Origin: Candidatus Woesearchaeota archaeon
Lineage (GTDB): Archaea > Nanobdellota > Nanobdellia > Woesearchaeales > GW2011-AR15
Length of the DNA: 64,000 bases
NCBI GenBank assembly: GCA_014729915.1
Contig: WJJD01000058.1
Coordinates: 18,293-82,292, forward strand
Reading direction: 5' to 3'
Below, one piece after another: positions 2 to 43,960 of the stretch. The notes beneath the pieces are model-generated. The model saw nothing but the letters and a program-made list of their open reading frames with translations, did not search any database and was not told the DNA's origin. How positions within the stretch are numbered: position 1 is the first letter of the stretch; every line of letters starts with the position of its first letter. A program made the position numbers and the translations under genes.

Positions 2-3000
2 ATAGGGGATACTGCAGGAATAGTTGGTAATTCCACAAACTTTGACGGTTCAGGGGAATGGATTGAGGATTCAGATGCTGAAAATTATTTGAACTCTACA
101 TCCAATATTTCATTTAGTGTATGGATAAATTCCGACTCAATAGCCAATGACCGCCCTATTTTCATAACTCAGGAATCAGGGTTTAATGATTCAAGTGACT
201 CTTGGTCTTTAATCAGATTTGATCAGTACGGATGGTCAGGCAGTGGGGAAGAAGTCATTAAAATAGCTTTAAGATCAAGCTCAGGAACTACAGCTGCTGA
301 AACAACTTCTAATGCAACCGGTACGGTCTGGATGCATCTTTCACTTGTCTGGAATTCAGGAGAAGCACCTGTCTTGTACAGGAATGGTTCTGTTATGCCT
401 TGGAGTGCTGCCCCCGGTCCTTTAGCAGGAAATTTTGAGGCTGATACTTTGGCAATCGGCAGAGGAAATAAAGATGAGTGGTGGGACGGTTTGATAGATG
501 AATTCAGGATCTCAAATGTTTCAAGAAGTGCAGCCTGGCTCAATGCATCCTATCTTAATCAGTTTGACCCGTCCGGTTTTTACAATGTTAAAACAAGTGA
601 GGATCCTGAAACACCGGAAATTTCAGATACCAAATGCTATGAGTCGGATTCAGATTGGATAGACTGCGATACAATAGGATTTGAAAACCAAATAGAAAAA
701 ATAAGAACAACCTGCGACTCTGTCCAGGGCGGAGAAGTAAAAAATGTTACATTTGTCTTTAAAAACATTGAAGATAATAAAATATATTTTAATGTTACAA
801 CCGCAGATAACAGCACAGGATACTGGGAATACAATATTTCTGATATTACAATATATGATTCAGGAAGGTTCAATCTTAAAACTATATGCAGGCAGAATCC
901 CGAATCAGAAGAAGAGATAAACTGGACAATACCTTTTGGAACCTTATCCTCTGAATTAATAAGCCCGGATAAAAATATCAATGTTACAAAGTACAGGTTT
1001 TTTAATTTCACATCAAAAATAACATGCACCGGAGGGGAATGCGGATATATCAACGCAAGCCTTGATCCCATTGACTGGTGGAACCAGTCATGGTCAAAAA
1101 GAAAAGAGATCAATATCACAGGAATTTCATCATCAGGTTTAGAAGAATTTCCGGTTTACTTAAACATCACAGATGAAACTGAGATGCAGCCCGATTATGA
1201 AGACCTGAGGTTTTTCAATGGATCCTGCTCTGTAAATTCCGGGGGGCTGAATTATGAAATTGAAGATTATGATGCAGATCATGCTGATGTATGGGTAAAA
1301 GTATCTAATTTAACATCAGGAATAAATACATTGTGCATGTACTATGGTAACTTTGGTGCAGCTTCCGGAGAAAATATCTCAGGAGTATGGGACAACGGAT
1401 TTATCATGGTGCACCATTTCCAGGAAACTATCAATGATGATGTCGAGGGCCACATTGATTCTTCTCCATATTCAAATGACGGAACACCAAAGAATCTTCA
1501 GGATGCCGGAGACGGGACAACTGATACAGAAGGAAAGATTGATGGTGCTGATAAATTCGGAAATGATGATGATTATATCAATGTAGATGATCATGCAAGC
1601 CTTGAGCCAAATTATATTACAATCTCAGCATGGGTCTTTCCTGAATCCATATCATCTGAATCCTGTACTGAAGGCCAGCATAACCGTGGAGATATGATAT
1701 TGGATAAATCAGGAGGTTCAGACGATTCTATAGAATTCGGACTGTGTGATGATGACGGCATATATTTCTACATTGACACAGGATCTGATTATACAGCATC
1801 AAACCAGACATATGGATTTTCAACAGATGCGTGGTATTATGTTTCTGCAGTCTATGACGGATCAGACATGTTTGTCTATGTGAATGATGAGCTGATAAGG
1901 ACAAAACCAGCTTCAGGAAACATAATTACAAATGCAAATGATGTTCATTTAGGAGGAAGAACTGACCAGAGCAAGTATTTTGACGGTTGGATAGATGATA
2001 TGCAGGTATCAGGTGTCGGAAGAACACAGGACTGGATTAACCAGAGCTATCAGCTAATGCAAAACCAGGAAGCATTTGTAAATTTCGGAACCGGTGAAAA
2101 AATAACAAAAGATCTTGTCTCAATGACACCGAGAGACACACCGTTTTACACAACAACAAATAACTCCATGAATTATGAATCAAATCCATGCCTTGCAAAC
2201 ATGACTTCAGGAAATGCCTGCAATACGACCTGGCAGGTAAATGCAACCGGAGATTCAGATTCGGTCTGGGAGTTTTTTACTTTATATGAATCAACAAATT
2301 ATTCAGAAAATGTAACTGAAAATAAAACCTCAAAAATAAACATCACAATATTAAACAATGCTGCACCTTTAGTTAAATCAATATCTATCCTGCCGGCAGA
2401 CCCAAGGTTTTCTGATAATTTAACATGCATATATAATATTACTGATACGGGTTATTTTGATGATCTTTCAGCAAATATCTCCTGGTATAAGAATGAAGCA
2501 TTAGAATATTCAGAAATCATTTCAGTTGAAAATGCTGTCCGGGCTTCCCGGGAATTATACTCAGGAAATACTTCAGCTGGTGAAGTGTGGTACTGTGCAG
2601 TAACTCCAAAAGATTTTGAACTCACAGGAACCCGGGAAAATTCAACAAAAAAGACAATACTTGCATCTTCTCCCCCGTCAATAAGTAAAATACAATGCAG
2701 GGAAACAGAGACATGGAAATCATGTGATGAGATAAGTTTTAATAATAATCTTACTGCAGTAAGGGTGAATTGTACAGATACTGATAATAATGTTGCAAAT
2801 GCAAGTTTTAATCTTTCTAATATTGATGATTCAAAAATACTTGTAAACGGAACATCGGCTGATAATTCAACTGGTTATTTTATGCTTGACAATGCTGATA
2901 TTATAATTTCAGATTCAGGAGCATTTAATATTACTGTTGTATGCTATGATGAATCCGGAGTCTCAAATTCAAATTACACTCAATGGGAAATTCCCTTCGG

Positions 3001-6000
3001 AGTCTTTTCAGCTGAATTGGTAAGTCCGGTCAAAAATATCAATGTCACAAGACATAGGTTTTTTAATTTCACATCAAAAATAACATGTATTGGAGGAGAA
3101 TGCGGAAATGTCAATGCAACACTTGATCCTTCCGACTGGTGGAATTCATCCTGGACATACAGAAAAGAAATTAACATAACAGGAATTTCAGGGACGCAGC
3201 TTCAGGAATATCCTGTTTTTCTAAACCTATCCTATGACTCAGAGATGCTTTCAAACTACAGTGATCTTAGATTTATAAACGGATCATGCGGATCCTCATC
3301 AGATCTTTTAAATTATGAAATTGAAAACTACACTAATTCAAATGCATTGGTCTGGATTAAGCTTCCATCCTTAGATTACGGAAAAAACCAGATATGCATG
3401 TACTTTTCAAATCCTGATGCAGCGTCAGGAGAAAATATCTCTGGTGTGTGGGACAATGAATTTATCCTGATTCATCATTTCCGGGAAGTTGTTGATGACG
3501 ATGTCGAGGGCCATATTGATTCTTCTCCATACACAAATGACGGGACACCAAAAAACATGCAGGATGCCGGAGACGGGACAACTGGTACAGAAGGAAAGAT
3601 TGATGGTGCTGATAAATTCGGAAATGATGATGATTATATCAATGTAGATGATCATGCAAGCCTTGAGCCAAACCACATAACAATTTCAGCATGGATATAT
3701 CCTGAATCAATATCACCTGAAGCATGTGCGGAATCAAATCACAATTACGGGGATATGATATTAGATAAGTCAGGAGCTTCAGATGATTCTATTGAGTTCG
3801 GGTTGTGCGATGATGACGGAATATATTTTTACATAGACACAGGATCTGATTATACCGCATCAAACCAAAGCTATGGATTTTCAGCAAATACATGGTATTA
3901 TGTTTCTGCTGTCTATGACGGATCAGATATTTTTGTCTATGTCAACGATGAATTGATAAGGACAAAACCTGCTTCGGGAAACATAATTACAAATGCAAAT
4001 GATATACATTTAGGAGGTCGTCCTGATCAGAGCAAGTATTTTGACGGCTGGATAGATGAGATGCAGGTATCAGGTACAGGAAGAAGCTTCGGATGGATAA
4101 ACCAGAGCTACCAGCTTGTAGTTAATCAGGATAGTTTACTTAGCTTTTCAGACAGGGAAAAGCAGCCGAAAGGAGTAATTTCTATGATTTCTGGAGACAC
4201 CCCCTTTTACACAACAACAAATAACTCTATTAACTATGAATCAAATCCCTGCCTGGAAAATATGTCCTCAGGTGAATCATGCAATACTACATGGAATGTC
4301 AACACAACAGGAGATACAGGAGAGGTCTGGGCATTTTTTGCAATATATACTTCAACAGATTATCCGTCTAATATTACTGATACAGAGACAACCCGGATAA
4401 ATCTGACAATAATTGATAATTCTGCTCCGGGAGTTGTTTCAGTAAGTTTATCCCCGGCAGCTCCTTTGGACAACCAGGATTTAAACTGCACAATTAATAT
4501 AACTGATCCAGGGTATTTTGATAAATTGAGTGCAAACATAACATGGTATAAAAACAATGTTTCAAATTATTCAACAATAATTTCAGTCGAAAACGGTGTA
4601 AAAAAAACATCTGCTCTGTATTCGGAAAACACTTCTGAAGATGACACCTGGTACTGTGGAGTGATCCCTTATGATCAGGATCTTTACGGCACACAATCAA
4701 ATTCAAGCATCGCAACAATAATCTCCTCAATAGGGTCACTGAATTCAACATTGATTCTTCCTGTGCCGAATCAGACAACTGAAAAAAATATATATACAAC
4801 ATTTACAATAAATTCCTTAGTCGCATGTGAAGGAACCACTGGCCAGACCTGCGGTGATGTGAATGCAACTGCCCGCTATTCAGGAGGAGATTGGTGGAAC
4901 TCTTCATTTTCATACAGGTGCAACATAACAATCATAGAAGATGACGGATATGCAAGAATTAATGAGCCTGTTGTAATAAATGGTTCTGGTTTAAGCAGCC
5001 AGTGTCCGGACATATTAAGTGCCAAAGAGAATTCATTAAGATTGATAGATGACAGCTCATCCATTGTAAAACTGCAGGTTGACGACTGGCACAACATAAC
5101 AACAATCAGAGATCCTGATGATACTCTTGATTCAGATGATGAAATAATCTTTTTAATAAATCTGAGTGCAGGACAAAGCAGACAATATTACCTTTATTAT
5201 GATGATACAGTTAATGTGTCTGGGATTTATTCCAATGATACAGAACTGCAGACAACAGCAACTACAAGGACAATAATTGCAAAAGACTGGAACGGGACAT
5301 ATGACCGGGATGACGGCGGAAGCTCGGCAAGGAGCGGATTTTCCGATTTCTGGATTTATGATACTGAATATGGTCATAATAGTTATGCAATGATAATGCC
5401 AAGAATAGGTTCGTTAGATGGTGTTGATGAAATATTTACAGATGAAAACCATGGTCCTGTCAGGTATTATTTAAGAGTAAAACAGCCTGCATCAGATTCA
5501 GAAACAGATTATTTCTTTTACAAAGACAGGATTTATGTTCATTCAAGCTATGCAGACCAGGCATTTGTCAATTATATGAATGATGCAGCAGGAACAGTAG
5601 GAGACTCGTCAGCTGCAAGCGACTACGGCTACAGCAGTGATTATACAATACATTGCTATTCATCAGACTGTTCAGTTACTTTGTCAAATGAAGCAGGAGG
5701 ATATGATGACCTCCAATTAGATGCAGCAGATGACGAACATTCTATGTGGGTTACATTCAACCAATCCAAAAGAGCAGACCACAACAATATAATCAATAAT
5801 CCGGTTACAAAAGAATTTTCAGTTCAGGAAAATTATTCGGGAATGTCTCCGATAAGCACAAATTCCGGAGCTACACCCTTTTTTTCATTATCTTCTCAGC
5901 CCAGGTTATGCGGGAATATGTATAAGGGAGATACCTGTCATATAAACTGGACAATCAATGCAACTGGTGAAATTGGCTCATCCTGGAACATAGATGTGAT

Positions 6001-9000
6001 CTTTGAATCTTCATCAGCATCAGTGGAATCATCAGAAACAGAAGATGTACAGATTGACCTGATAAACAATACTCCACCAGTGATATCAGATTCAGCAAGT
6101 TCTCCTTCGATATTCGGCTACGGATACAGTACAAACATCACAGCTGAAATTACAGATGAAGAGAATCTTACAGATAATGTCTGGATAATAATAGATATGC
6201 CTGACCAGGCATCAATAACCCAGAATATGCAGAATAATACACTAACAAATTATTCATATTATTTTTCAGACACATGGAGGTATGGTTCATACAATTACAC
6301 AATCTATGCAAACGATACACACGGAGCAGAATCATCCTCTTCAGGGCAATTTCTGGTAAGTGTGACAGGAGAGATGGATGTCTCTACAAAAAATAATTCC
6401 TATGGTCCTGATGAGGTTGTGAAATTAGAAGGAGAGGGTGTTAGAGATGACTGGTGGAACACATCTTTTTCCTACAGAAAGCAGCTTACAATAACAAATA
6501 ATGATGCTTCAACTCTCCCTGAAAATTATATGATCAATCTATCTATAAATACTTCAAAACTGATCTTAGAAAACAAACTTCAGATAGATTGTGATGATTT
6601 GAGAATAGTCTGGAAGAACAGTTCTGACTCAAGTTATCATGAAGTTGATAGAATAAATGAAACACCTTGCAATACCTCGCAAACAAAGATTACCTTTTCA
6701 ACAAAATCAACAATATCTGCGGCATCAGATGACAGGAATTACTGGATTTACTACGGCAATTCAACAATTTCAGAAGGTCCTCAAAACAAGTCAATAATCT
6801 ATCCTTTGTGGGATGATTTTAATAAACCTGATGGAGATACACCCGGCTGGACAGTTGTAACAGGAACATGGCAGATTTCAGGCAATGAGCTTCAGGGAAC
6901 TAATCCTTCAGGAAGCAATAATGCCGGAGCAGTATCAGGAGATACTTCCTGGACAGATTATAACTTTACAGTCAAGATGAATTCATCAGCAGGAAGTACA
7001 AGAGCACCGGGTCCGATAGTCAGATACCAGGACAGCAATAATTACTGGTGGATGGAATGTTATGGAGGAGATATAATATTCAGACCGAAAATAGGGGGGG
7101 CTGATCAAGACTGGATAGATTCATTTAGTGTTTTTGCCGGTTTTCCTGTCCAGGGAACAGAATATGAATTGAGTATGGTAGTTTCAGATCAGCACATTGA
7201 CATGTGGGTTGACGGAACAAAGTATGTTGATTATGATGTAGGTTCTTCTTATCAGATCTCAGCAGGTTCTGTTGGTTTTACTCAACATTCAGGAACAGGA
7301 GAAACAGTCACGTTTGATGATGCACTTGTCCGGAAATACACCTCTTCAAAACCTTCTTATCAATTAGATGATGAGCAGTCTCTGGTAGCGCTAAAATCAT
7401 ATGTCAGAAATAAGAATACAAATTCATATGATTTTAAGGCATATTTACTGATGAGAATACAAAGATACTCAGGAGGATCATGGATAAATGTAGATACGCC
7501 GGTTGTAAATGATATTATCCCTCCGGTAAACCAGAGGACATTTTCCACAGGAAATGTTCTTTATTTGAACACAACCTGGGTGGACAAAGGTTCATGGGAT
7601 ACTGAAACAAACCAAAACGGGACATACCGTGTGTTGGCAAGGTTGACTGATCCCACCGGATCTATTATCCTTAAAAAAGATGCAGATGAGAATTTTGAGG
7701 CAACCTCAGAATTTACAATTGGCTCTCCGGATTTGAGAATAACTGATCTTACTCATGAAAATCTTTATGATCATGCAATTAATGAATATGAAGTCACTGA
7801 TACTATCGACTGGATAAATGTCTCGATAATCAACCTGAACAAGACCGCAATTAATGCAACTATCTCTTTAAGTCTTAAAGATTTCAATGATGATATAACA
7901 GATTGGGGTCCAAACACGATAAAGAGCTGCGGGGATTTAACTTATAATGAACAATGCACAAAAAAGTTTGACAACTCTTCTTCAGGTTACCAGATTCCCG
8001 AAACCGCATCTTCAGGGACATATAATTTTTCCTGGTCAATCTCTCTGGATTCAGAAGTCGGAAATTCCTATATCAATGAATCTTTAAAAGTAAAGATCCA
8101 TAATCTGCAGAATAATTTTTCTGCAGAATTATCTCCATCAAGCATTTACAAGAACCAGTCCTCTTTATACAATCTTAGCATATATACTCCCTGGTCAGAA
8201 AACTTGACAGAAGTCTATGTAAAGATCAATTGCCCTGCTCTTTCAGGTATGGTATGCAAATGTCAGGGAGGTCCTGATAATTATTGTTATTTCAGTTCAA
8301 TATTAGATGAAACTTTCAGGGATATGAGTTTCAATATAACAACTAATGCATCAACACCTATAGGACAATACAATATAAATGTGACAATCAACTATACAAA
8401 TCCCGGAAATGAGATAAGGGAGTGGACAGACCAGCAAAATAAGGAATTAAAAATATCACAACCGGGAATTTTAGATACTTTTATAACAAACACAGATTCA
8501 TCAGTAAACAGAAATACCCTATTTGAGTTGACAGGATACACAAATAATACAGATAATTCTGAGGGAGATGATGTAAATCTGACATGGACTCTGCCTGCAT
8601 CATGGACTAATTATTCAGGAGGATTTACAGGATACAATTCTAGTCTGGGAACTCTTGACAGATTTTGGTATAATCTGACTGCAAACATAACATTGAATGC
8701 AGAACAGGGAATAAAAATAATTTATCTTACATCAAACTCTTCAAACAAGCCGGGAAGCACAGATTCATACTCTGTAACAGTTTATCTTAAGCCTAAACTT
8801 GTGAACCTGGTTTCAGATGACTATGATCCTGGCCAGGGCGACTCAATTCAGCTGCAGGCAACATTAGAGTATGACAACGGAACAGTAATGCAGGGTCAAA
8901 CAGTCTCTTTTTATGATACAACACAGAACTACTCAATAGGTTCAGATTCAACAGATTCATCAGGAATAGCAGCTGTTAATTATAATATTGCTGATGATGC

Positions 9001-18000: not shown

Positions 18001-21000
18001 ACCAGCTTCAGGATCAACTACAATTCCCGGTTCATCATATCCCGCAGGAATAGGAGCAAGATATCTCTCTTCTGCCAGCCATTTTTTCGGAGGAATCATA
18101 GATGAGGCAAGAATATCAAAAAAAGCACGATCACAGGTATGGGCAAACCAGACCTACCGGATGATGGCAGACCAGGATTCTTTTGTGACGGAGGGCAGAT
18201 CTGAAAAAGGAAAATCCCTTGTCTCAACAATACATGGTGACACCCCGTTTTATACCACTGATGCAAATCCTGTTTTTCCTGAAGATGAAAACTGCCTTGA
18301 AAATATGATTAGTGGTGTTTCCTGCAATATCTCCTGGGAGATAAATGCAACAGGAAATTACTGGACAACCTGGGAATTTTTTGTTGAATCCATGGCTATG
18401 AATTATTCAGACAATATATCAACATCAATAAGCAGCAAAATTAACATAACAATAACACCAAATCAGGCTCCGTCTCTGTCCTCAGTGAGCATTTCTCCTG
18501 AGTATCCTGTGCATACAGACAACCTTACATGCAGATTTACAATAACTGATCCGAATTATTTTGATTCCTTATCTGCAAACATAACCTGGTACAATAATAG
18601 TATTCCGGCTTACTCACAGACAGTTGATGCTTTAAACGGGATTGTTGCAAATGCAACTCTCAATTCAATAAACACTACTGCAGGAGAAAAATGGCACTGC
18701 GGGGTAATACCCTATGACGGGAATCTCTACGGAGATGAATTAAATTCATCAAACATCACAATACTTTCAGAAAGGCCTCCTGAAATAAACAAAATCGAGT
18801 GCTACAGGAATAACACGGACTGGATTGACTGCAGTGCATTGGAATTCAATGATGTCTTTTCAGGAGTCCGTGCAAATTGTACAAGTGATCAGAACTCAAT
18901 ATCCAATGTCACTTTTAATTTTACAAACATCCCTGATTCACAAAAATATTTTGAGAATAAAACAGCAACAAATACTGGAGATTGGTGGTATTTTTATAAA
19001 AATATAACAATGAACAATTCAGGTGAATACAATATCTATTCAGTATGCAGGGACAACTCAACAAACACAACAGATGTCGATGAGCTTACAAACTGGACTA
19101 TACCGTGGGGAACACTCTCAGCTAGCTTAATAGAACCGGATGCTGATACAAACAAGCAGGTTGATTCGTTTTTCAACTTTACTTCGGAGATAACATGTCT
19201 GAATGGTGAGTGCGGAAATGTTGAAGCACAGCTTGATCCTTCTGTAAGCTGGTGGAATTATTCCTGGGATAAGAGAAAAGAGATTAATATAACTTCAGTT
19301 GCCTCAGCTGAACTTGCAAACTTTCCGGTTTATCTTAATATAACAAAAGAATCAGATATGCAGAATGATTATGAAGATTTAAGGTTCTTCAACAGTACAT
19401 GCAATGATCATCAGTCAACAGAGCTGAATTTTGAGATAGAGAAATATGATTCATCTAACGCAGATATCTGGTTAAGCCTTCCGATATTAAAACCTGGAAC
19501 AAACACAATATGCATGTATTATGATAATGCTGCTGCTTTGTCAGGAGAAAATATCTCCGGAGTATGGGATGATGATTATGTTCTTGTGCTGCATTTAGAT
19601 GAATCCTCAGGAACCCATTATGATTCAACCAGCTATGGATACAATGGAAGTCCGTCGGTCCTTGATCAGAATGCAGCAGGTTATATTGATGGTGCAGATG
19701 AATTTGACGGGACAAGCAGCTATATAACAGCAGGAGATATTGATGAATTTTCTGATGAAATAACATTAGAAGCATGGATAAAACCGGACGGATCACAGGA
19801 TGACTGGTCAAAAATCATAACAAAAAGAAATTCAGGAGATTCAGATTATGTATATACACTGCAGTATGACAATGCCCAGCAGTTGATGTTTCAGTTAAAT
19901 GATGCAGCGATATCTTCAACTACAACAACAACTTATTCTTCTTCAGTATGGTCATATATAGCCGGCTCATACAATGGTTCAGACATGGATCTTTATGTTG
20001 ACGGGATTTCCAGGGGATCAGATTCAGGATCAACTACAATTCCCGGTTCAACGTACCTGACAGGAATCGGAGCAAGGTATATTTCATCAGCAAGCCATTT
20101 TTTCGGAGGCACAATTGATGAGGTCAGGATATCTAAGATAGGAAGGACAATGGACTGGATCAATCAGACTTATCAGCAGGTTGCTGATTACGAAAATATA
20201 ATAACAGTCGGAGACCAGGAAACCAGGCAGAAAGGTACGGTTTCAACAATTGAAGGAGACACTCCATTCTATACAACAGATGAGAATCCTCTGAACTATT
20301 CTCATAAATCTTGTCTTGAGAATCTTATTGCAGGAAGAGTCTGTAATGTTACCTGGAAGGTAAATGCAACAGGGCCCGTAGGCTCAGTTCATGAGTTTTT
20401 TGTGATATACAACATGACAACCAACCGGCCTTATGTATCAGATACAGAAACAACCCATATCTACATAACGATAAGTGATTCAGCAGACATCCCTCCTGCA
20501 GTCTCCTTATTAAGGCCTGAGAATAATCACCTTACAAATCATCCTGATGTAGTATTTAACTGTTCAGCATCTGACAATACCGGACTTTTTAATATAACAT
20601 TATACAGCAATTTCGGAGGTTCTTTTGAAGAGAATGGTACAAACAGCATAACAGGTACAGAAAATTCAACTACATTCTCAAGAACACTTAATCAGGGGAC
20701 ATATATATGGAACTGCCTTGGTTTTGATATTGACGGGAATTCTGACTGGGGAAATTCAAATTATACATTTACAATAGATACAACTTCCCCTTCAATTTCT
20801 TTGTCAGGACCTGGTGATGGAGATTCTTTTAACAATAACAATATTGAGTTCAATTTTACAGTTATGGATAACCTTGACACAACTATGGTCTGCAACATAA
20901 CAGTAAACAACACAGTTGAGGATGAGAATTTTAATGCCGGCAACAATTCATTAATAACAAGGACAATCACAGAATTCGGATCAGGAACCCACTTCTGGAA

Positions 21001-24000
21001 TATAACCTGTGTTGATGATGCAGGAAATATTAATACAAGCGATACAAGAAATTTCACGATATCAGATCTTCCTCCAGAAGTCTTTTTATTGACTGAAGAT
21101 GATGTTTACCAGAGTTCAGATTCAATCTCTCTTGCATATAACGCAACTGACAACAATAATGTCACAGAATCAATGCTTTACATAAACGGGATTTTGAATG
21201 ATACAACTGATGATCCAATAGATAATATTGAACAGACATTTAATTTAACTAATTTAGCAGAGGGAATCTATAACTGGACAGTAAATGTCTCAGACATAAA
21301 TAATCTTACAGATATGGCATCAGAAAGATGGTTTACAGTTGATTACACAAAACCTTCAATAAACCTTACAGGACCAGAAAACGGTTCTTTGCTTAACATG
21401 AGCACAGTTTCTTTTAATTATACAGTCTTTGACAATCTTGATTCAGGATTGATCTGCAATATCACGATAAACAATACAGTAAGGGATTTAAATTACGCTG
21501 CTGCAAATAATACTCAGATCTTTAGAGATATAACATTGATTGACGGGGTCCATTACTGGAACGTAACCTGTGCGGATAATGCAGGAAACACAAATACAAG
21601 CATAACAGGAACTGTCCGGATAAGCTCTTCTCCGACAGTTGTTCTTGATTCTCCGGAACAAAATTACTCACAGAATACTCAAGACATGACCTTTTATTAC
21701 ACACCGACAGACAACACTAATTTTACAAGCTGTGATCTTTTAATAAATGATAAAGTCAACAAGACAAATTCAAGCATAACAAATGGTGCACAGAACCAAT
21801 TTTTTGTGCTAGGATTTTCTGAAGGAACATACAACTGGACTGTAAACTGTACAGATACAATAGGTCTTTTTTCTGCTGCATCTCCTAAAAGAGATTTTAC
21901 TATTGATTTGAAAAAACCATCTATAATACTCCACCATCCGCTTTTGAACAAGACATTTTATTCAAGAGATGTGATGTTTAATTATACTGTGGTTGATGAT
22001 TTTTCCGACACACTTAGCTGCAACCTTACAATAGACAGAGAAGTGAATCTTACAGGTATATCATCAATAAACAATACACCTGTCAACAGGACAATAACAA
22101 TTACAGACGATGGTCTCCATTGGTGGAACATAACATGTATTGATGATGCAGGAAACTCAAATACAAGCATTACAAGAAACTTCACAACCTTAAATCCTCC
22201 TGAAATAACTCTTGTTTCTCCTGAAGATAATACAATCCTTACAAACGGCACAGATATTGAATTTGAATACAGCCTGTCAGATTTGGATGGTATAGATAAC
22301 TCAAGCATTTTTATCAACGGAAAAAGAAACAAGACTGATTACAGTCCGAGCACGGAAATAAATAATTATTTTTATCTTAATTTTTCAGAACAGGGAATCT
22401 ATACATGGAATATCGAAGCATTTGATTTAGAGGGACTTGGAGCCAATGCAACACCAAGAACACTCACAATCGATTATTCTCCTCCTGTTGTTACCATAAA
22501 CTCTCCTAAGGAAGGGGATAATCTGTCATGGAACAATGCAACATTTAATTTTACAGTCACTGACAATCTTGATTCACAGCTTTTTTGCAACATAACAATA
22601 AATGATACAACAGAATATGAAAATATAACTGTCTCAAACAACAGCGATGTAATAAGATACAGGATTGTCAGGGATGGAAATTATAATTGGTCAGTAACAT
22701 GCATTGATCATGCAAACAACACAAACGAGTATAAATTGATAAATTTCTCAGTGTCTGCTCCCCCGGATATCACATTAAACTACCCTGTAGATAACTACAG
22801 GACTGGACAGGTAAATCTCACATTCAATTATACACCCGGAGATGCAATCGGATTAGAGAATTGTACATTAATTATCAACGGAGAAGATAATAAGACAGAT
22901 GAAGAAATAGACAAGAACATATACAACTATTTTGATGTGGATGAGTTTCCCGAGGGAGAATACAACTGGACAGTAAGGTGCTATGATAAGACTCCTGAAT
23001 TCAATGAATATACTGCTGCAGCTGAAAACTTTACAATTGATCTTACAGGACCTTCTATAAATATTCACAGTCCTTTAGAGAGTGATTCTATCAACACAAA
23101 CGATGTTTTCTTTAACTGGACACCAATTGATAATTACGGAATAGATTTAATATGCAATCTGACACTAGACGGAGAAGTGAATATTTCAGGAATTACAACT
23201 CAAAGCAGTTCTTTGACAAACAGGACAATTTATGATCTTGATTTCGGAGCACATAACTGGAGTGTGGCCTGCAGGGATGACCTTAATAATAAAAACACAA
23301 CAGAAACTTACAATTTTACAATAAACAATGCTGATCTTACATTAAATTCTTCACATATAACCTTTAATAATTCTGCACCTGAAGAAAATGAGAATATCAC
23401 AATCTATGCAAAAATATTTAATACAGGAGGATCAGATGCAGAAAACTTTACGGTCCAGTTCTTCCGGGGAAACTACACCTTAGGAAATCAGATAAACGAA
23501 AACAGGACATTAAGTCTTCTGATTGGTGAAAATAAGACTGTCAATACTACCTGGTCTGCAGGTGTACCAAATCCATATTATATTTTTGTTGTTGTTGATC
23601 CGCCCATAGCTTCAGAAGGAATCATTGCAGAGCTCAATGAATCCAACAATGTTGCTTTTAATACAGTTTATGTCGGAAGCTATAACACACTTTACGGAAA
23701 TATTTCAGGAGTTCTTAATATAAAGCAGAACCTTACAAACAGGACAGTATTTGAATGGTCGTTATTAAATTTTACAGGAAGCAACATATATGCGGTTGAT
23801 TATGACAGCAATATTGACTGGACAGATCTTCATGCTGTAAGCAGAAATACAACTCTGGATTATATTCAGGATGATTTTTTTGAGATAGATACCGCTCTTC
23901 AGATGGAAAACAACACAGACTCTTTAAACCAAAGCTACACTGCAAATTCACAGCCCAAATTAACCAGAAACTTTACAGTCTATTCCTCTTCGATTTCATA

Positions 24001-24238
24001 TGTTCCGGTCATAAATTCAACAAACAACTCAAATTTTATGACAGGAATTTTGTGGGACAAATCTGACGGAAACAATGAATTCAATGCAACCCAGGATCTT
24101 GTATTCATAACAGAAGTAAAGGAAAATTACTCCGGATATTTCGGATACTATGATTTTGAGTTTAAGGTTCCAAGCAACCTGAAATTATACAAACAGCCTG
24201 ATACAACAAAGGTAGCATTATATACAGAACTAAAATGA
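2..24238 (+). CDS. Giant secreted multidomain surface/adhesin-like protein. It is 5'-partial: the frame is open from nt 2, so the product is longer than 8,049 aa. Modules: DUF2341-like, LamG/ConA-like lectin domains, Big/Ig-like repeats, CARDB, and a conserved C-terminal tail.
   Basis: The ORF track gives 89..24238. Frame 2 has no stop back to nt 2 and reads IGDTAGIVGNSTNFDGSGEW, which resembles the internal LamG repeats, so the gene is truncated by the window. There are 8 copies of the 'DWWN[QST]SW.[YK]RK.INIT ... DLRF' motif at about nt 1075, 3134, 4891, 6448, 9464, 15230, 17241 and 19248. LamG-like segments have the form 'GYIDGADEFDGTSSYITAGDIDEFSD ... LEAWIKPDG ... GGTIDEARISK ... WINQTYQ'. 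A CARDB-like segment at about 23330-23690 reads 'NITIYAKIFNTGGSDAENFTVQFF ... IFVVVDP ... ELNESNNV'. N-x-S/T sequons are extremely frequent. Confidence 0.85.
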   Translation: MGDTAGIVGNSTNFDGSGEWIEDSDAENYLNSTSNISFSVWINSDSIANDRPIFITQESGFNDSSDSWSLIRFDQYGWSGSGEEVIKIALRSSSGTTAAETTSNATGTVWMHLSLVWNSGEAPVLYRNGSVMPWSAAPGPLAGNFEADTLAIGRGNKDEWWDGLIDEFRISNVSRSAAWLNASYLNQFDPSGFYNVKTSEDPETPEISDTKCYESDSDWIDCDTIGFENQIEKIRTTCDSVQGGEVKNVTFVFKNIEDNKIYFNVTTADNSTGYWEYNISDITIYDSGRFNLKTICRQNPESEEEINWTIPFGTLSSELISPDKNINVTKYRFFNFTSKITCTGGECGYINASLDPIDWWNQSWSKRKEINITGISSSGLEEFPVYLNITDETEMQPDYEDLRFFNGSCSVNSGGLNYEIEDYDADHADVWVKVSNLTSGINTLCMYYGNFGAASGENISGVWDNGFIMVHHFQETINDDVEGHIDSSPYSNDGTPKNLQDAGDGTTDTEGKIDGADKFGNDDDYINVDDHASLEPNYITISAWVFPESISSESCTEGQHNRGDMILDKSGGSDDSIEFGLCDDDGIYFYIDTGSDYTASNQTYGFSTDAWYYVSAVYDGSDMFVYVNDELIRTKPASGNIITNANDVHLGGRTDQSKYFDGWIDDMQVSGVGRTQDWINQSYQLMQNQEAFVNFGTGEKITKDLVSMTPRDTPFYTTTNNSMNYESNPCLANMTSGNACNTTWQVNATGDSDSVWEFFTLYESTNYSENVTENKTSKINITILNNAAPLVKSISILPADPRFSDNLTCIYNITDTGYFDDLSANISWYKNEALEYSEIISVENAVRASRELYSGNTSAGEVWYCAVTPKDFELTGTRENSTKKTILASSPPSISKIQCRETETWKSCDEISFNNNLTAVRVNCTDTDNNVANASFNLSNIDDSKILVNGTSADNSTGYFMLDNADIIISDSGAFNITVVCYDESGVSNSNYTQWEIPFGVFSAELVSPVKNINVTRHRFFNFTSKITCIGGECGNVNATLDPSDWWNSSWTYRKEINITGISGTQLQEYPVFLNLSYDSEMLSNYSDLRFINGSCGSSSDLLNYEIENYTNSNALVWIKLPSLDYGKNQICMYFSNPDAASGENISGVWDNEFILIHHFREVVDDDVEGHIDSSPYTNDGTPKNMQDAGDGTTGTEGKIDGADKFGNDDDYINVDDHASLEPNHITISAWIYPESISPEACAESNHNYGDMILDKSGASDDSIEFGLCDDDGIYFYIDTGSDYTASNQSYGFSANTWYYVSAVYDGSDIFVYVNDELIRTKPASGNIITNANDIHLGGRPDQSKYFDGWIDEMQVSGTGRSFGWINQSYQLVVNQDSLLSFSDREKQPKGVISMISGDTPFYTTTNNSINYESNPCLENMSSGESCNTTWNVNTTGDTGEVWAFFAIYTSTDYPSNITDTETTRINLTIIDNSAPGVVSVSLSPAAPLDNQDLNCTINITDPGYFDKLSANITWYKNNVSNYSTIISVENGVKKTSALYSENTSEDDTWYCGVIPYDQDLYGTQSNSSIATIISSIGSLNSTLILPVPNQTTEKNIYTTFTINSLVACEGTTGQTCGDVNATARYSGGDWWNSSFSYRCNITIIEDDGYARINEPVVINGSGLSSQCPDILSAKENSLRLIDDSSSIVKLQVDDWHNITTIRDPDDTLDSDDEIIFLINLSAGQSRQYYLYYDDTVNVSGIYSNDTELQTTATTRTIIAKDWNGTYDRDDGGSSARSGFSDFWIYDTEYGHNSYAMIMPRIGSLDGVDEIFTDENHGPVRYYLRVKQPASDSETDYFFYKDRIYVHSSYADQAFVNYMNDAAGTVGDSSAASDYGYSSDYTIHCYSSDCSVTLSNEAGGYDDLQLDAADDEHSMWVTFNQSKRADHNNIINNPVTKEFSVQENYSGMSPISTNSGATPFFSLSSQPRLCGNMYKGDTCHINWTINATGEIGSSWNIDVIFESSSASVESSETEDVQIDLINNTPPVISDSASSPSIFGYGYSTNITAEITDEENLTDNVWIIIDMPDQASITQNMQNNTLTNYSYYFSDTWRYGSYNYTIYANDTHGAESSSSGQFLVSVTGEMDVSTKNNSYGPDEVVKLEGEGVRDDWWNTSFSYRKQLTITNNDASTLPENYMINLSINTSKLILENKLQIDCDDLRIVWKNSSDSSYHEVDRINETPCNTSQTKITFSTKSTISAASDDRNYWIYYGNSTISEGPQNKSIIYPLWDDFNKPDGDTPGWTVVTGTWQISGNELQGTNPSGSNNAGAVSGDTSWTDYNFTVKMNSSAGSTRAPGPIVRYQDSNNYWWMECYGGDIIFRPKIGGADQDWIDSFSVFAGFPVQGTEYELSMVVSDQHIDMWVDGTKYVDYDVGSSYQISAGSVGFTQHSGTGETVTFDDALVRKYTSSKPSYQLDDEQSLVALKSYVRNKNTNSYDFKAYLLMRIQRYSGGSWINVDTPVVNDIIPPVNQRTFSTGNVLYLNTTWVDKGSWDTETNQNGTYRVLARLTDPTGSIILKKDADENFEATSEFTIGSPDLRITDLTHENLYDHAINEYEVTDTIDWINVSIINLNKTAINATISLSLKDFNDDITDWGPNTIKSCGDLTYNEQCTKKFDNSSSGYQIPETASSGTYNFSWSISLDSEVGNSYINESLKVKIHNLQNNFSAELSPSSIYKNQSSLYNLSIYTPWSENLTEVYVKINCPALSGMVCKCQGGPDNYCYFSSILDETFRDMSFNITTNASTPIGQYNINVTINYTNPGNEIREWTDQQNKELKISQPGILDTFITNTDSSVNRNTLFELTGYTNNTDNSEGDDVNLTWTLPASWTNYSGGFTGYNSSLGTLDRFWYNLTANITLNAEQGIKIIYLTSNSSNKPGSTDSYSVTVYLKPKLVNLVSDDYDPGQGDSIQLQATLEYDNGTVMQGQTVSFYDTTQNYSIGSDSTDSSGIAAVNYNIADDAAVKTHTINISYSGDAGNYIRKNSSLLNITVHQITNISEVSASPQKTGYGMQINLSAKIIDGDGITSAKVNITYPNSSVVSYNLSSFGTSYSKIFNKTWNPGKHYYKIQTSDSTGENSQSALYNFTISTNASLRVETKKYNYSQKEHVNLSLTPEFWWSTDYSHRKQINVTNNDAQVLKKGYTMNISLDTASLISADKMEADCADLRITWYNSTGAVEMELDRIIDSSCNRADTELTFMIQENISASFSDTNYYLYYGNSGTDNPPENKTRVYIFYDEFNYTAGTLPGWTVVSGTWQTHQQKLRGQSPSGQNNMGAKNGDSTWTDYRMETRMNSAGGSTRAPGPIIRAQDNDNYWWFEQYNGQIVFRPKIGGADQGWEASFSVFGGYPVQGTWYNLTLEVIDQHVDIFVDGTQYVDYDIPVADQVTNGEIGFTQHTGTNEDVRFDDVKVTLLMSAGPSADIRGEESLSSVVLNNGSADFKAYLFMKIQYNNSGVWENKQTVVDDLSTSTIRRINSSDYLGLTSIWQDNGAWYTDLEENGIYRVYSEIRDISGNVLADDSGNYLNDSEIFEILPPSINIDLDSITIYDVTDAADTHTDTITLVDSGLNKTFELFTNKSYRVEIKVDVLQDSADYIINESNITHNNLNGDWNITAGDIWYADFEKTYSGGTFSRQNVSWNSSSGGSVSEFNSVTFYYVVNTTTDTSGNYPVLFRIKNPNYQEQDSSVYYVIESEESPPGLYNDEYNLVPSIVFRNETLKISARWNEEIRQARAEYNSTSADLGNYTIALPEPNPYNWTNHSITTNISWILGVHSARIYAQDLNYNWNKTLDYKTFEVRGYSSVSSITLDPQIIDIDENTSILCRVISDNLSGIENYNVSFYNGSGLIGTNLTNQTGWAVFTYQDKTAGTETFSCNISDDPEKYYNVSTDSRKSDLTTHEFEYPWYDNVNQSSPIVHKTGLINLWAMWYDNLELDKAWLSTNETGSYQNNTLADSIFFAGNESRSNFTAEIPEDANPGAVGWRIYANDTSDNVNQTSVYGFEIWGYAKVSSITLDPESMFVGNTTNITCRVIDANSTSSIENYNVSFYNSTGHIGSALTDASGYAKINYTDSSSGLETIICNITDWDIGYYNISLQNSQQEELNTLPEGYDIYPPGIIEYDLTKDSITRGKNITIYAQWTEEINRSKVKYNSTSSEIFTYNLTPPFPENRTNYTITTNNTWYAGRHSAKLTAYDQNNNRNNTLSYLDFNVTGWSKVYWHLPTEIVAGDTISLVCNVSDKHLDTPISNYLVYFYNETFDYLGYNYTNESGLAALNVSIGGKTGSETYYCEISDSLDIFYKVNSSFNDDLASQLLTFNQQSPQISLHYPQNNYNSTTDFINFNFTATDDLDEIMECDLIVDSVTEKSGFNATNNTITNVNATLTDGYHNWNISCSDDNGLEDTSSTRTLKIDTTGPEIEIKSPDNNYWHTENITILFNATDLTLVNNCSLIINNEINRTKNSSVLNNPNNFTLNNNNQGIYDYKINCSDIYGFTDASSRKTFYIDTTKPSIELFSPVKNSTQYSVVITFGLRSTDNLADLMMCDITSDGVEIVQDIKVYNNTFTTSEYDYGYEGVGKHYWNVTCTDNASNINTSWTWDFNISVIPNISLDSPANDTWSKHNLTFTYTPKDVNGFENCSIYIDDILNDTDESIVNYYENSFYIENVSEGKHNWTVKCFNNNLVLLAANQTNTFTIDRTDPSIRLLAPEPGSLKNISSVEFNFTVLDNLDSLLVCNLTINSSVESVDFNVSNNSITNQTVIDLKDGVFDWNITCIDNAGNTNTSLTGNFNISVDPNVTLNQPENNFITKLRNISFNYTPEDLTGIENCSIYINEELNDTEDNIKNNRINRFNITDFKQGKYNWTVKCYDSSRYRNSYKAPLRYFSINDSIPPEIENTQCYKTGSGWVDCDSLAFNEVIESVHTKCYSNVSGIVDNVTFSLKNIDDNKVYYNQTLTSKAGEYWEYNHTDIRILDSGEFNLHIICRENPVTEEDTNWTISFGTLSSELISPTIDINVSRNRFFNFTSKITCSGGECGYVKAGLDPVNWWNTSWERRKQINITNIGSSVLSDFPAYLNISKESGMRNDFYDLRFFNGSCGFETEELAYEIEFNGSLQADIWLKIPSLNPGKNTLCMYYSNSQAQNAENISGVWDDDYVMVLHLDETTGVHYDSTSYNYNGSGSVNSQDAEGYIDGADEFDGTSSYITAGDIDEFSDQITLEAWIKPDGTQSSWAKIISKRNSANNHYVYTLQYDSAQHLTFQLNDAALAATTTSTYSSQSWVYAAGSYNGADMDLYVDGVSAASDSGATVVPASDYPTSLGARYRSGADQYFGGTIDEARISKKGRSRIWINQTYQMMANPQNIVEYSSGEINKGLISTNEGDTPFYTIDDNPMNSTYLACLANMTAGESCNTTWSVNATGTADSVWEFFATYESMNYSDNVSENITTTVNINIIDNQAPVVESISLSAQNPGETRDLNCTFIVTDSSSFDILTANVSWYKDDELSYSKIIDVSNGVLKNHILDSANTTAGEVWHCGVTPYDQYLYGNSQNSSKITIQLSEPPVISGIQCKENGESWAGCSEIQFNDNLTHIRADCFDPDGEVINVTFTLKNLDDNYTYFSGTTQDNSSGYFVFNNTDIRITDSGDFRLTAVCRDDFDVNDTEQTEWLVPWGTLSSTLLDPTGNINVTKNKFFNFSSRISCSGGECGHVNVSLDPVKTWWNSSWEYRKEINITSLGSLEKFPAYLNISKESEMRDDYYDLRFFNGSCGADTEELAYEIEFNGTFNADAWVKIPALSAGTNTICMYYGNSDAENGEDIAGVWDDDYVMVLHLDESAGMHYDSSSYGYNGTPDSISDQDAAGYIDGADEFDGTSSYITAGDIDEFSDKITLEAWIKPDGSQEDYAKIITKRSDSNHYLYTLQYDDSQHLIFQVNDNTIGVESAATYSASSWSHVLGTYDGSDMNLYIDGVPETPASGSTTIPGSSYPAGIGARYLSSASHFFGGIIDEARISKKARSQVWANQTYRMMADQDSFVTEGRSEKGKSLVSTIHGDTPFYTTDANPVFPEDENCLENMISGVSCNISWEINATGNYWTTWEFFVESMAMNYSDNISTSISSKINITITPNQAPSLSSVSISPEYPVHTDNLTCRFTITDPNYFDSLSANITWYNNSIPAYSQTVDALNGIVANATLNSINTTAGEKWHCGVIPYDGNLYGDELNSSNITILSERPPEINKIECYRNNTDWIDCSALEFNDVFSGVRANCTSDQNSISNVTFNFTNIPDSQKYFENKTATNTGDWWYFYKNITMNNSGEYNIYSVCRDNSTNTTDVDELTNWTIPWGTLSASLIEPDADTNKQVDSFFNFTSEITCLNGECGNVEAQLDPSVSWWNYSWDKRKEINITSVASAELANFPVYLNITKESDMQNDYEDLRFFNSTCNDHQSTELNFEIEKYDSSNADIWLSLPILKPGTNTICMYYDNAAALSGENISGVWDDDYVLVLHLDESSGTHYDSTSYGYNGSPSVLDQNAAGYIDGADEFDGTSSYITAGDIDEFSDEITLEAWIKPDGSQDDWSKIITKRNSGDSDYVYTLQYDNAQQLMFQLNDAAISSTTTTTYSSSVWSYIAGSYNGSDMDLYVDGISRGSDSGSTTIPGSTYLTGIGARYISSASHFFGGTIDEVRISKIGRTMDWINQTYQQVADYENIITVGDQETRQKGTVSTIEGDTPFYTTDENPLNYSHKSCLENLIAGRVCNVTWKVNATGPVGSVHEFFVIYNMTTNRPYVSDTETTHIYITISDSADIPPAVSLLRPENNHLTNHPDVVFNCSASDNTGLFNITLYSNFGGSFEENGTNSITGTENSTTFSRTLNQGTYIWNCLGFDIDGNSDWGNSNYTFTIDTTSPSISLSGPGDGDSFNNNNIEFNFTVMDNLDTTMVCNITVNNTVEDENFNAGNNSLITRTITEFGSGTHFWNITCVDDAGNINTSDTRNFTISDLPPEVFLLTEDDVYQSSDSISLAYNATDNNNVTESMLYINGILNDTTDDPIDNIEQTFNLTNLAEGIYNWTVNVSDINNLTDMASERWFTVDYTKPSINLTGPENGSLLNMSTVSFNYTVFDNLDSGLICNITINNTVRDLNYAAANNTQIFRDITLIDGVHYWNVTCADNAGNTNTSITGTVRISSSPTVVLDSPEQNYSQNTQDMTFYYTPTDNTNFTSCDLLINDKVNKTNSSITNGAQNQFFVLGFSEGTYNWTVNCTDTIGLFSAASPKRDFTIDLKKPSIILHHPLLNKTFYSRDVMFNYTVVDDFSDTLSCNLTIDREVNLTGISSINNTPVNRTITITDDGLHWWNITCIDDAGNSNTSITRNFTTLNPPEITLVSPEDNTILTNGTDIEFEYSLSDLDGIDNSSIFINGKRNKTDYSPSTEINNYFYLNFSEQGIYTWNIEAFDLEGLGANATPRTLTIDYSPPVVTINSPKEGDNLSWNNATFNFTVTDNLDSQLFCNITINDTTEYENITVSNNSDVIRYRIVRDGNYNWSVTCIDHANNTNEYKLINFSVSAPPDITLNYPVDNYRTGQVNLTFNYTPGDAIGLENCTLIINGEDNKTDEEIDKNIYNYFDVDEFPEGEYNWTVRCYDKTPEFNEYTAAAENFTIDLTGPSINIHSPLESDSINTNDVFFNWTPIDNYGIDLICNLTLDGEVNISGITTQSSSLTNRTIYDLDFGAHNWSVACRDDLNNKNTTETYNFTINNADLTLNSSHITFNNSAPEENENITIYAKIFNTGGSDAENFTVQFFRGNYTLGNQINENRTLSLLIGENKTVNTTWSAGVPNPYYIFVVVDPPIASEGIIAELNESNNVAFNTVYVGSYNTLYGNISGVLNIKQNLTNRTVFEWSLLNFTGSNIYAVDYDSNIDWTDLHAVSRNTTLDYIQDDFFEIDTALQMENNTDSLNQSYTANSQPKLTRNFTVYSSSISYVPVINSTNNSNFMTGILWDKSDGNNEFNATQDLVFITEVKENYSGYFGYYDFEFKVPSNLKLYKQPDTTKVALYTELK
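650..4700 (+). repeat. Two tandem ~2-kb intragenic modules (Ig-like x2, DUF2341-like, LamG, Ig-like x2) that are about 90% identical at nucleotide level in their cores
   Basis: Compare nt ~1380-1700 with ~3430-3750: 'gtcgagggccacattgattcttctccatat...' versus 'gtcgagggccatattgattcttctccatac...'. Protein motifs repeat in the same order: KCYESDSDWIDCD/QCRETETWKSCDE, FGTLSSELISP/FGVFSAELVSP, WWNQSW/WWNSSW. Confidence 0.65.
13050..23330 (+). repeat. About 30 tandem ~90-100-aa Ig-like beta-sandwich repeats of two alternating types, within the giant gene
   Basis: Alternating units: type A ends '...DG.H.WN[IV]TC.DNAGN.NTS....F.IS', and type B reads '...P..N.....N.T..Y.P.D..G.ENCS.YI......T........F....F.EG.YNWTVKCYD' followed by 'T.D.T.PSI'. 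Confidence 0.55.
14770..20500 (+). repeat. Three tandem ~2-kb intragenic modules of the same architecture (copies 3-5), with LamG cores of about 95% nucleotide identity
   Basis: The segment 'ggctatattgacggtgcagatgaatttgacggaacaagcagctatatcacagcaggagatattgatga' recurs at about 15661, 17668 and 19681. The protein motif GYIDGADEFDGTSSYITAGDIDEFSD occurs three times. Confidence 0.65.
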
Positions 24239-24348
24239 TTTCATACAAAAAATGTGCAGAAGATAATTTTCTGAATTTTTCAGGAAGTCTAAACTTATCT
24301 TCTGCACCATTCCATCAGGGAAAAATTCAGAAAACAAGCATTTTTTGT

Positions 24349-31709: not shown

Positions 31710-31910
31710 ATGGTAACCTTAACAGAGTTTAAAAAGGAGTGGGTAAAACTTGTTTTTAATGAGACCCCGACTAAAGTAGTTGTTAAGCAGGGATACCTCT
31801 ATGATGATGGAGAATTCTATAAAGTGATCGGAGACAGATCAGAAACGCTTGTGCGCAAAGATAAAGTGATCAGTATAACTAAAAAATCTTTTAAAGGTGA
31901 TACAAAATGA
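31710..31910 (+). CDS. Small hypothetical protein (66 aa), translationally coupled to the next gene through an ATGA overlap
   Basis: ORF 'MVTLTEFKKEWVKLVFNETPTKVVVKQGYLYDDGEFYKV...'. Its stop overlaps the start codon of 31907. Confidence 0.4.
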   Translation: MVTLTEFKKEWVKLVFNETPTKVVVKQGYLYDDGEFYKVIGDRSETLVRKDKVISITKKSFKGDTK

Positions 31911-33560: not shown

Positions 33561-33561
33561 A

Positions 33562-43465: not shown

Positions 43466-43960
43466 TCAGCAGTCTTCAATCTGAGTGATATCTGCTGAAT
43501 ATGCCCTATCTATACAGTTATAAGTTGTACCATCTGCTGATCTTATCATCGGAATTATCTGGACCTGCCTTACTCCATTAAGGCCTGCGGTACTGTAAGT
43601 GAAGTTGAAGATGTCACTCTGTCCTGAAGTCAAAGCATATCCTGTACTTGAGTTTGTGTAAATATCATCATTTCCGATGACCTGGAAAAACATATCTACA
43701 ATATTTCTTGATCCTCTGTTAATCAATGTTGTTTTTATAGTATTTGTGTCCTTGCACACATCATAAACATCATTGATAACCATAGGTTTTAATACAACTT
43801 CTGTTCCGCATTCGAGTTTTACAGTCTCTCCTCCGATTTTGTCTACGCTCTCTTCTGTCATCCCCCGAAGGAATACTGAGATGAAAGCACCTACTGAAAC
43901 AACAACTAATACAAGAATAATTGCTCCTAAAAAAGTTGAGACACCTCTTTTATCATTCAT
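43466..43960 (-). CDS. Archaeal type IV pilin-like protein with a class III signal peptide
   Basis: 'MNDKRGVSTFLGAIILVLVVVSVGAFISVF': a short basic n-region, a K-R-G cleavage motif, then a 20+-residue hydrophobic segment typical of archaeal pilins/archaellins. Total length 164 aa. Confidence 0.6.
   Translation of the reverse strand: MNDKRGVSTFLGAIILVLVVVSVGAFISVFLRGMTEESVDKIGGETVKLECGTEVVLKPMVINDVYDVCKDTNTIKTTLINRGSRNIVDMFFQVIGNDDIYTNSSTGYALTSGQSDIFNFTYSTAGLNGVRQVQIIPMIRSADGTTYNCIDRAYSADITQIEDC

Follow-up and report, generated by a model that had tools for sequence, protein, structure and literature searches.

How might an archaeon keep on its surface a protein of more than 8,000 residues that has no membrane-spanning helix, and what would such a protein do there? 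The question is raised by a 64,000-nucleotide stretch of contig WJJD01000058.1 (Candidatus Woesearchaeota archaeon, assembly GCA_014729915.1, positions 18,293 to 82,292 of the forward strand), hereafter the window, in which a single open reading frame (ORF) occupies the first 24.2 kb. A life in attachment to other cells is assumed for DPANN archaea, and the prime candidates for making the contact are the few very large proteins of their surface. We consider it probable that the giant protein encoded here serves a Woesearchaeota-type DPANN archaeon as a multivalent adhesin of lectin type, acidic and N-glycosylated, docked on the cell through its C-terminal tail and with its lectin array facing outward. 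What appears new is the tail domain together with its gene cluster.

Frame 2 is open from nucleotide (nt) 2 to a stop codon at 24236-24238 on the plus strand, and its in-frame translation gives 8,078 sense codons with a single, terminal stop. At the base composition of the region, a stop would occur by chance in 7.1% of codons, and the natural logarithm of the probability of meeting none over the whole ORF is about -595. The sole other ORF of at least 150 amino acid residues (aa) between nt 1 and 24238 is an antisense one of 160 aa, and the GC content is even over the length of the gene, at 0.35-0.40. An earlier note on this DNA, made by reading the sequence, had described one uninterrupted ORF that fills 24.2 kb and continues upstream; the translation agrees, since the frame is already open at the first base of the window, and nt 2-24238 is one real gene, truncated at the 5' end. 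The visible product has a mass of about 902 kDa before glycosylation and a pI of 4.2, with 1,089 acidic against 440 basic residues. Nowhere in it does a 19-residue segment reach a Kyte-Doolittle mean of 1.6, and the protein ends in ...KVALYTELK without a hydrophobic segment, in keeping with the same note's reading that no C-terminal transmembrane (TM) helix or known sorting signal is visible. The gene is laid out as follows, where Ig denotes immunoglobulin-like, LamG the laminin G-type domain and X a region described below.

2-24238, plus strand: giant ORF, 5'-truncated, 8,078 codons and stop
8-601, plus strand: LamG head of class H1, aa 3-200 (Laminin_G_3, 62.9 bits; matched at full length by the internal profile)
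599-4741, plus strand: supermodules 1 and 2, aa 200-890 and 890-1580, each with Ig, DUF2341, LamG H2 and X (DUF2341 at 1034-1501 and 3095-3562; LamG H2 at 1523-2098 and 3584-4159; X at 2099-2665 and 4160-4729)
4844-6061, plus strand: divergent DUF2341, aa 1615-1776 (internal profile, E=3.6e-43), and degenerate LamG-like head, aa 1777-2020 (self-BLAST)
6410-7411, plus strand: DUF2341, aa 2137-2274, and second jelly-roll, copy 1, aa 2275-2470
9425-10411, plus strand: DUF2341, aa 3142-3287, and second jelly-roll, copy 2, aa 3288-3470 (sub-threshold match to DUF1080/3keto-disac_hyd)
10979-13051, plus strand: tract of Big_3_5/Big_1-like Ig repeats, aa 3660-4350
13055-14755, plus strand: six tandem Ig repeats of about 94 aa, Big_13 type, aa 4352-4918
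14699-20521, plus strand: supermodules 3-5, aa 4900-6840, with DUF2341, LamG H5 and X (DUF2341 at 15191-15646, 17198-17650 and 19205-19666; LamG H5 at 15650-16201, 17657-18205 and 19670-20221; two-domain X at 16202-16771 and 18206-18769 in supermodules 3 and 4, partial X at 20222-20491 in supermodule 5)
20483-23323, plus strand: ten tandem Ig repeats of about 94 aa (stalk), aa 6828-7774, collinear with relatives
23330-23656, plus strand: CARDB, aa 7777-7885
23648-24235, plus strand: tail domain, aa 7883-8078, ending ...VALYTELK, with no curated family

Pfam scans were made with the whole giant protein and with 15 segments of it. Laminin_G_3 (PF13385) is found in six copies at 62.9-92.3 bits, all over the gathering cut-off of 27.6, so that the LamG/ConA-like lectin domains proposed earlier stand. 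DUF2341 (PF10102) is matched by four copies at 32.2-37.3 bits, over the cut-off of 23.4, and by two more at 21.3 bits, while a hidden Markov model (HMM) built from internal copies finds exactly eight modules of this type (E 4.9e-32 to 3.9e-74), the number that had been counted by eye. Each of them opens with the 'DWWN...YRK' motif, about 40 residues ahead of the start of the Pfam model. The single CARDB domain that had been called (PF07705, aa 7777-7885) scores 45.8 bits against a cut-off of 22.7 and has the fold of that family. The Ig families matched are Big_13, Big_7, Big_3_5 and Big_1, and the repeat of about 94 aa is present in 20 copies by HMM, 16 of them within the two tandem tracts of six and ten; with the Big_3_5, Big_1 and X-region domains added, an estimate of some 30 Ig-like repeats is reasonable.

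Self-comparison reveals a supermodule of about 680 aa, present in five copies and composed of Ig, DUF2341, LamG and X, the last consisting of two small beta domains that contain cysteine. A jelly-roll head follows directly after all eight DUF2341 modules: five of these heads are LamG, one is a degenerate LamG-like domain (aa 1777-2020) recognised through self-BLAST only, with no Pfam match, and two are a second type of jelly-roll. The LamG domain at the window edge (aa 3-200) should be the head of a ninth unit with its DUF2341 partner upstream of the window. The second jelly-roll had been noticed twice, at about 6830-7330 and 9850-10330, and its two copies, 57% identical, were located at matching coordinates (nt 6824-7411 and 9863-10411). 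Five head classes can thus be told apart, i.e., three LamG types, the degenerate LamG-like one, and one that resembles DUF1080. Between the two groups of supermodules the heads are 30-32% identical, compared with 47-56% for DUF2341 and 47-54% for the X domains. Because the heads diverge more than the adjacent DUF2341 and X domains, the pattern fits heads that have been swapped or diversified on a constant DUF2341 scaffold. A design rule is suggested, in which ConA-like heads from five classes can be exchanged on a DUF2341 pedestal that stays the same, and which provides DUF2341 with a function that can be tested.

The placing of the second head in DUF1080 is insecure. When a long query is used, the match to 3keto-disac_hyd/DUF1080 (PF06439) covers profile positions 10-186 of 187 at 25.7 bits (E=1.3e-5), just under the cut-off of 26.8, so that DUF1080 falls short among the profile searches proposed in the earlier note, where DUF2341, Laminin_G_3 and CARDB succeed. 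With a single copy as query the score is 21.9 bits, and the other copy is not reported. The second jelly-roll matched no PDB sequence and no homologues, and its hhalign comparison with the LamG copies was not significant. An enzymatic role taken from the DUF1080 name was rejected, given the sub-threshold match and the absence of catalytic evidence. A comparison of the DUF2341-LamG unit with PDB sequences returned only weak matches to the LamG domain of pappalysin (E>=0.012).

The giant contains 419 N-x-S/T sequons, against 163±11.5 in shuffled sequences (z=22), with the same outcome when shuffling is confined to 50-residue blocks. The reversed motif occurs 176 times, and the excess is therefore directional. 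Half of all asparagines lie in sequons, and NxT (253) exceeds NxS (166) even though serine is commoner than threonine. The sequons had been said to occur every few residues; the strong directional excess holds, but the mean spacing is 19 residues; the final 500-residue block of the distal Ig tract, with 40 sequons, has one per 12.5 residues or so. Most of the other signal-peptide proteins in the window have a 2-4-fold excess, the proteins without a hydrophobic segment mostly little or none, and relatives of the giant a median excess of 2.65-fold. From this excess, heavy N-glycosylation of the giant is predicted.

Relatives of the giant are already present in public databases, without functional description and under the NCBI names 'DUF2341 domain-containing', 'FG-GAP-like repeat-containing', 'Ig-like domain-containing' or 'hypothetical'. 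The last 312 residues match 12 database proteins, the best of which is labelled Candidatus Woesearchaeota, at 51% identity. A scan of species-representative genomes gave 112 relatives, labelled Woesearchaeota, Nanoarchaeota, Pacearchaeota and, in a few cases, Micrarchaeota, all of them DPANN labels; the exception is some bins labelled 'uncultured Methanosarcinales', which we regard as doubtful. Records with that label that carry the cluster include L001, L002, L006, L008, L012 and others among the related loci; the labels are probably wrong, and the neighbour proteins in L006 are 60-65% identical to those of the window. An exhaustive search with a CARDB-plus-tail profile returned 5,493 representatives at E<=1e-3 and 1,054 (50%-identity clusters) at E<=1e-30, where the weak matches and some of the strong ones are multi-CARDB proteins that lack the tail. 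In the best 150 of the 5,493, to which statements on length and end position refer, the match reaches the last residues of the protein, the maximum length is 7,158 aa, and 13 tail-bearing proteins exceed 5,000 aa.

The family is recognised by a terminal tail preceded by CARDB and tandem Ig repeats of about 94 aa, and the window protein has this architecture. Its C-terminal 1,250-1,350 aa, comprising the ten Ig repeats, CARDB and the tail, are collinear with many relatives at 38-47% identity. As for the supermodule, the nearest relatives are 31-37% identical and share the DUF2341-LamG pair only; DUF2341 occurs in 17 and LamG in 7 of 133 relatives. Sixteen full-length relatives (4,504-7,158 aa) begin with a basic and then hydrophobic stretch typical of Sec signals, and their internal hydrophobic segments are marginal only, with means of 1.6-1.7. 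After the signal peptide these proteins share an N-terminal module that also occurs in a 1,050-aa paralogue encoded in the window and is absent from the visible 8,078 aa of the giant. Metagenome contigs yielded no close relatives of aa 1-344, an exact 44-mer had no match in genome or metagenome contigs, and neither had the downstream 752-aa protein when looked up by exact sequence. What is cut off at the 5' end probably comprises a signal peptide, the N-terminal module and at least one DUF2341. On one Woesearchaeota contig, JAFGGS010000016.1, at least two giant genes of the family lie about 50 kb apart (L077 at 302270-340326 and L050 at 370078-390674), and one of the giants encoded there (6,018 aa) adjoins a DUF87 ATPase gene and a chemotaxis gene set.

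Internal repetition is a feature of the giant gene, whose longest exact repeat, of 87 bp (nt 1524 and 3585), lies inside a stretch of about 180 bp that is at least 94% identical between its two copies (nt 1450-1630 and its counterpart). An assembly artefact, in which separate genes or copies of a repeat were merged to give a single ORF, nevertheless seems very improbable. The best DNA self-match within the gene reaches 74% identity over 1.7 kb, DNA matches between Ig repeats extend over at most 78 bp, and collapse is unlikely because the repeat copies are no more than 74% identical. No internal signal peptide, CARDB or tail marks the boundary of a fused gene, and a fusion of two genes was rejected since both an internal signal peptide and an internal tail are absent. 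The C-terminal part is collinear with independent assemblies, and full-length relatives of 5,000-7,158 aa exist. The most that a mis-join at the 87-bp repeat could do is to change the count by one in-frame supermodule. Between supermodules 1 and 2 (1450-2000 and 3510-4060) the DNA identity is a mosaic of 40-96% that peaks over the LamG head, which suggests gene conversion between these adjacent copies.

The tail, of about 196 aa, is matched by no Pfam or NCBIfam model. A tail HMM finds it at aa 7883-8078 of the giant with E=1.1e-81, and its core is marked by an invariant NST sequon and a W-D motif. The earlier note had called it a conserved C-terminal tail; its end lies at most four residues from the C-terminus in all 133 representatives, it is equally terminal in 76 of 76 related loci, and it moreover forms a widespread family with members in four other genes of the window. 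Prediction of single-module structures had also been suggested, and AlphaFold2 models the tail confidently: the predicted local distance difference test (pLDDT) score is 85.5 for CARDB plus tail and 81.7 for the tail alone, the latter with a predicted template modelling (pTM) score of 0.81. Both runs agree on the secondary structure, and the tail model contains about 12 strands and two short helices. Foldseek found no neighbour of this model among the solved structures in the PDB (E>=0.7), and the fold is unlike those of solved pilins, archaeal threads and S-layer proteins. The HMM matches five window ORFs, namely the giant, the 1,050-aa paralogue (E=1e-66) and three small proteins (E~1e-7) of 241-275 aa, which consist of a signal peptide and a tail and align over the whole domain.

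26498-29650, plus strand: 1,050-aa paralogue with signal peptide, family N-terminal module (weak MG2 match), CARDB and tail
31907-32734 and 32802-33560, plus strand: two small secreted tail proteins of 275 and 252 aa, signal peptide and tail
36006-36731, minus strand: third small secreted tail protein, 241 aa, signal peptide and tail

Related loci repeat the arrangement: in 36 of the 76, a large tail-bearing gene has small tail ORFs, often in tandem, at a distance of no more than about 10 kb, and these ORFs number 86 in all. The small proteins are rich in sequons and have a Sec signal followed by a conserved [DE]P.G[AP], with a mature N-terminus of the form P.G..I. Tentatively, the tail could be the signature of an undescribed, DPANN-specific system for surface attachment or assembly, in which the giants dock onto, or co-polymerise with, the small tail proteins. 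In its support we list the lack of a family and of a fold neighbour, the position of the tail as always the last domain, and the approximately 1,000 clusters matched by the CARDB-plus-tail profile, some of them without a tail. If correct, such a system would be the archaeal analogue of cohesin-dockerin pairing, SLH domains or pilin-domain incorporation, and would show how proteins of megadalton size can stay on Woesearchaeota-type cells with neither a TM helix nor a sortase signal. The tail and its small stand-alone paralogues form a defined candidate, of wide distribution, for the means by which the cell retains such proteins.

For the giant itself we favour the following course of events. 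The protein would be exported through Sec by means of a signal peptide and conserved N-terminal module, both upstream of the window, as in the full-length relatives, and some 400 sequons would receive glycans from the archaeal oligosaccharyltransferase. The ten Ig repeats, CARDB and tail would form a cell-proximal stalk and docking end, with the tail holding the protein on the envelope non-covalently, perhaps paired with the small secreted tail proteins encoded just downstream. The variable lectin array would project outward and bind glycans of a host cell or substrate at high avidity; about 60 beta-sandwich domains could, on a rough estimate, span about 0.2 µm if fully extended. The tail is favoured as the dock because the lectin array is variable and the stalk, CARDB and tail are constant, and because the protein has no TM helix, lipobox or archaeosortase signal. 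Attachment to a host or substrate is suggested by the domain content and by the literature on DPANN surface proteins with LamG and CARDB domains, which are proposed host-attachment factors (PMC10266531, PMC5498576).

Four points weigh against this arrangement. The giant's own N-terminus lies outside the window; the N-terminal module is also conserved in the family, and conservation alone cannot tell the proximal end; the N-terminal hydrophobic segment of the relatives could be an uncleaved signal anchor; and the 12 sequons in the 196 residues of the tail suggest a solvent-exposed, glycosylated surface rather than a buried one. A competing account, which we judge unlikely but the most serious of its kind, is a reverse orientation, where the uncleaved N-terminal segment (13-20 residues in the relatives, enough to anchor) sits in the membrane, the stalk, CARDB and tail are distal, the tail is a knob that contacts a partner cell, and the small tail proteins are short versions of this knob. 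The sequon density of the tail equals that of the rest of the protein, and its invariably terminal position recalls fibre knobs. However, motifs typical of cleavage (AQA↓S, VSA↓E and [DE]P.G[AP]) follow the hydrophobic stretch in many relatives and in the small proteins, the variable ligand-binding modules of adhesins are usually distal, which here would be the lectin array, and the sole structural similarity of the tail to a fibre knob is noise (Foldseek E>=0.7, probability 0.03).

The sharing of one domain between the giant and the 86 small ORFs, often tandem and within about 10 kb of the relatives' giant genes, would also be expected if the small tail proteins polymerise and the giant is incorporated through its tail, at the tip or elsewhere, as FimH is through its pilin domain. 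Their Sec signals and conserved mature N-terminus P.G..I agree with such a filament, but polymerisation is without evidence, the tail fold differs from those of pilins, archaeal threads and S-layer proteins, and no assembly machinery was identified in the window; we hold this account less probable than the reverse orientation. A connection with type IV pili, which has been proposed for the large DUF2341 proteins encoded in pilus loci of Methanococcus, appears still more doubtful. DUF2341 proteins do occur in type IV pilus loci of archaea (PMC4858521), transposon insertions in the DUF2341 gene of the epd pilus locus came out of a screen for M. maripaludis mutants defective in transformation (PMC10133366), and the window has a pilin-like ORF at 43466-43960 on the minus strand (MNDKRGVSTFLGAIILVLVVV...), which scores 19.4 bits with arch_flag_Nterm, where the cut-off is 20. 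Against this, a pilus ATPase, platform protein and prepilin peptidase were not found in the 40 kb downstream, the signals of the relatives are of Sec type and not class III, and most members of the family lack DUF2341. The tail-docked adhesin remains the arrangement that we prefer.

DPANN archaea are already known for giant surface proteins rich in Ig and LamG domains (PMC10266531, PMC5498576), and for giant lectin-rich adhesins; the window protein is a new, unusually large and lectin-rich member. The nanohaloarchaeal 'SPEARE' giants reach 9,409 aa, with a C-terminal membrane-spanning region and a cytoplasmic VirB4/TraG-like ATPase domain (PMC10266531). Like the window protein, SPEARE is a giant, acidic, Ig-rich, Sec-exported DPANN surface protein thought to mediate host contact. 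Unlike SPEARE, which ends in TM and ATPase regions, the window protein has no TM segment or ATPase-family match and ends in CARDB and the tail, and a SPEARE-type identity was rejected for want of a TM helix and an ATPase domain. The size of the window protein nears the 9,409-aa record reported for cultivated archaea (PMC10266531). Nor does it qualify as an archaeosortase substrate (PGF-CTERM and similar), since its end, ...KVALYTELK, contains no hydrophobic stretch.

The arCOG03508 proteins of type IV pilus loci (epd in Methanococcus) likewise carry DUF2341 in a large extracellular archaeal protein with a proposed role in adhesion. They are encoded in a pilus locus, whereas the giant has no such context, is far larger, has many repeats, and has relatives with Sec-type signals; with neither ATPase nor platform protein in the 40 kb downstream, the side of the locus that the window shows, the giant does not fit the pilus-associated DUF2341 class. 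Giant repeat adhesins of bacteria, such as the RTX adhesins MpIBP, SiiE and LapA, share with the giant the logic of a long tandem Ig-like stalk, a ligand-binding cluster and a retention module at one end. Closest are unnamed giants from Woesearchaeota and Nanoarchaeota, such as MBN1793027.1 (6,018 aa) and MBN2422330.1 (5,808 aa), both annotated 'DUF2341 domain-containing protein', and MCF7865839.1 (7,158 aa). These have the collinear ten Ig repeats, CARDB and a tail 34-56% identical to that of the window protein, are enriched in sequons and without TM helices, and in some cases also contain DUF2341 and LamG. They differ in size (at most 7,158 aa among the best 150, versus at least 8,078 aa) and in having no more than five DUF2341 or five LamG domains (147 scanned, maxima in different proteins), compared with eight and six. 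Current views are sharpened rather than overturned, and the parts that can be tested are named.

Beyond the tail-bearing genes, the surface-protein cluster downstream of the giant includes the following.

24235-26493, plus strand: 752-aa protein with two hydrophobic segments (aa 45-69 and 590-621), directly after the giant
33538-34506 and 54872-55780, plus strand: two secreted proteins of about 300 aa with a second C-terminal module
56694-60077, plus strand: 1,127-aa Disaggr_repeat protein with the same module

The ATG of the 752-aa protein overlaps the stop codon of the giant, and its homologues align only from residue 25-66; the true start may be Met39 (nt 24349). A homologue of this two-TM protein directly follows the giant in loci L001-L005. 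The second C-terminal module, W[KE]L[KE]IP...G.C.GK..FTA, stands at the very end of the protein in 27 of the 76 loci and matches no curated family. Secretion ATPases, sortase-like enzymes and glycosyltransferase families were not recognised in the window, nor were tRNA or Rfam features.

Three further genes lie at 30492-31433, 45052-47544 and 51965-54850 on the plus strand. Two encode proteins with DUF5752-like C-terminal regions, and the third has a similar C-terminus (...KKEMI.IL..Y) behind a TM helix, which suggests that a cytoplasmic module may be shared by several surface proteins of the locus; a DUF5752-like protein is found in 19 of the 76 related loci. Within the surface-protein cluster, 34516-35997 (plus strand) encodes a 493-aa membrane protein of about 11-13 hydrophobic segments, for which Pfam and NCBIfam gave no match and the 76 loci no homologue. 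The gene at 37591-39276 (plus strand) has a possible prepilin-like N-terminus, KKG↓IESVEQ.... Finally, between 48270 and 51520, genes for a glutathione-synthetase-like ATP-grasp protein, a class-II glutamine amidotransferase and a GCS2-type glutamate-cysteine ligase are adjacent to one another, which is unusual in a small-genome archaeon.

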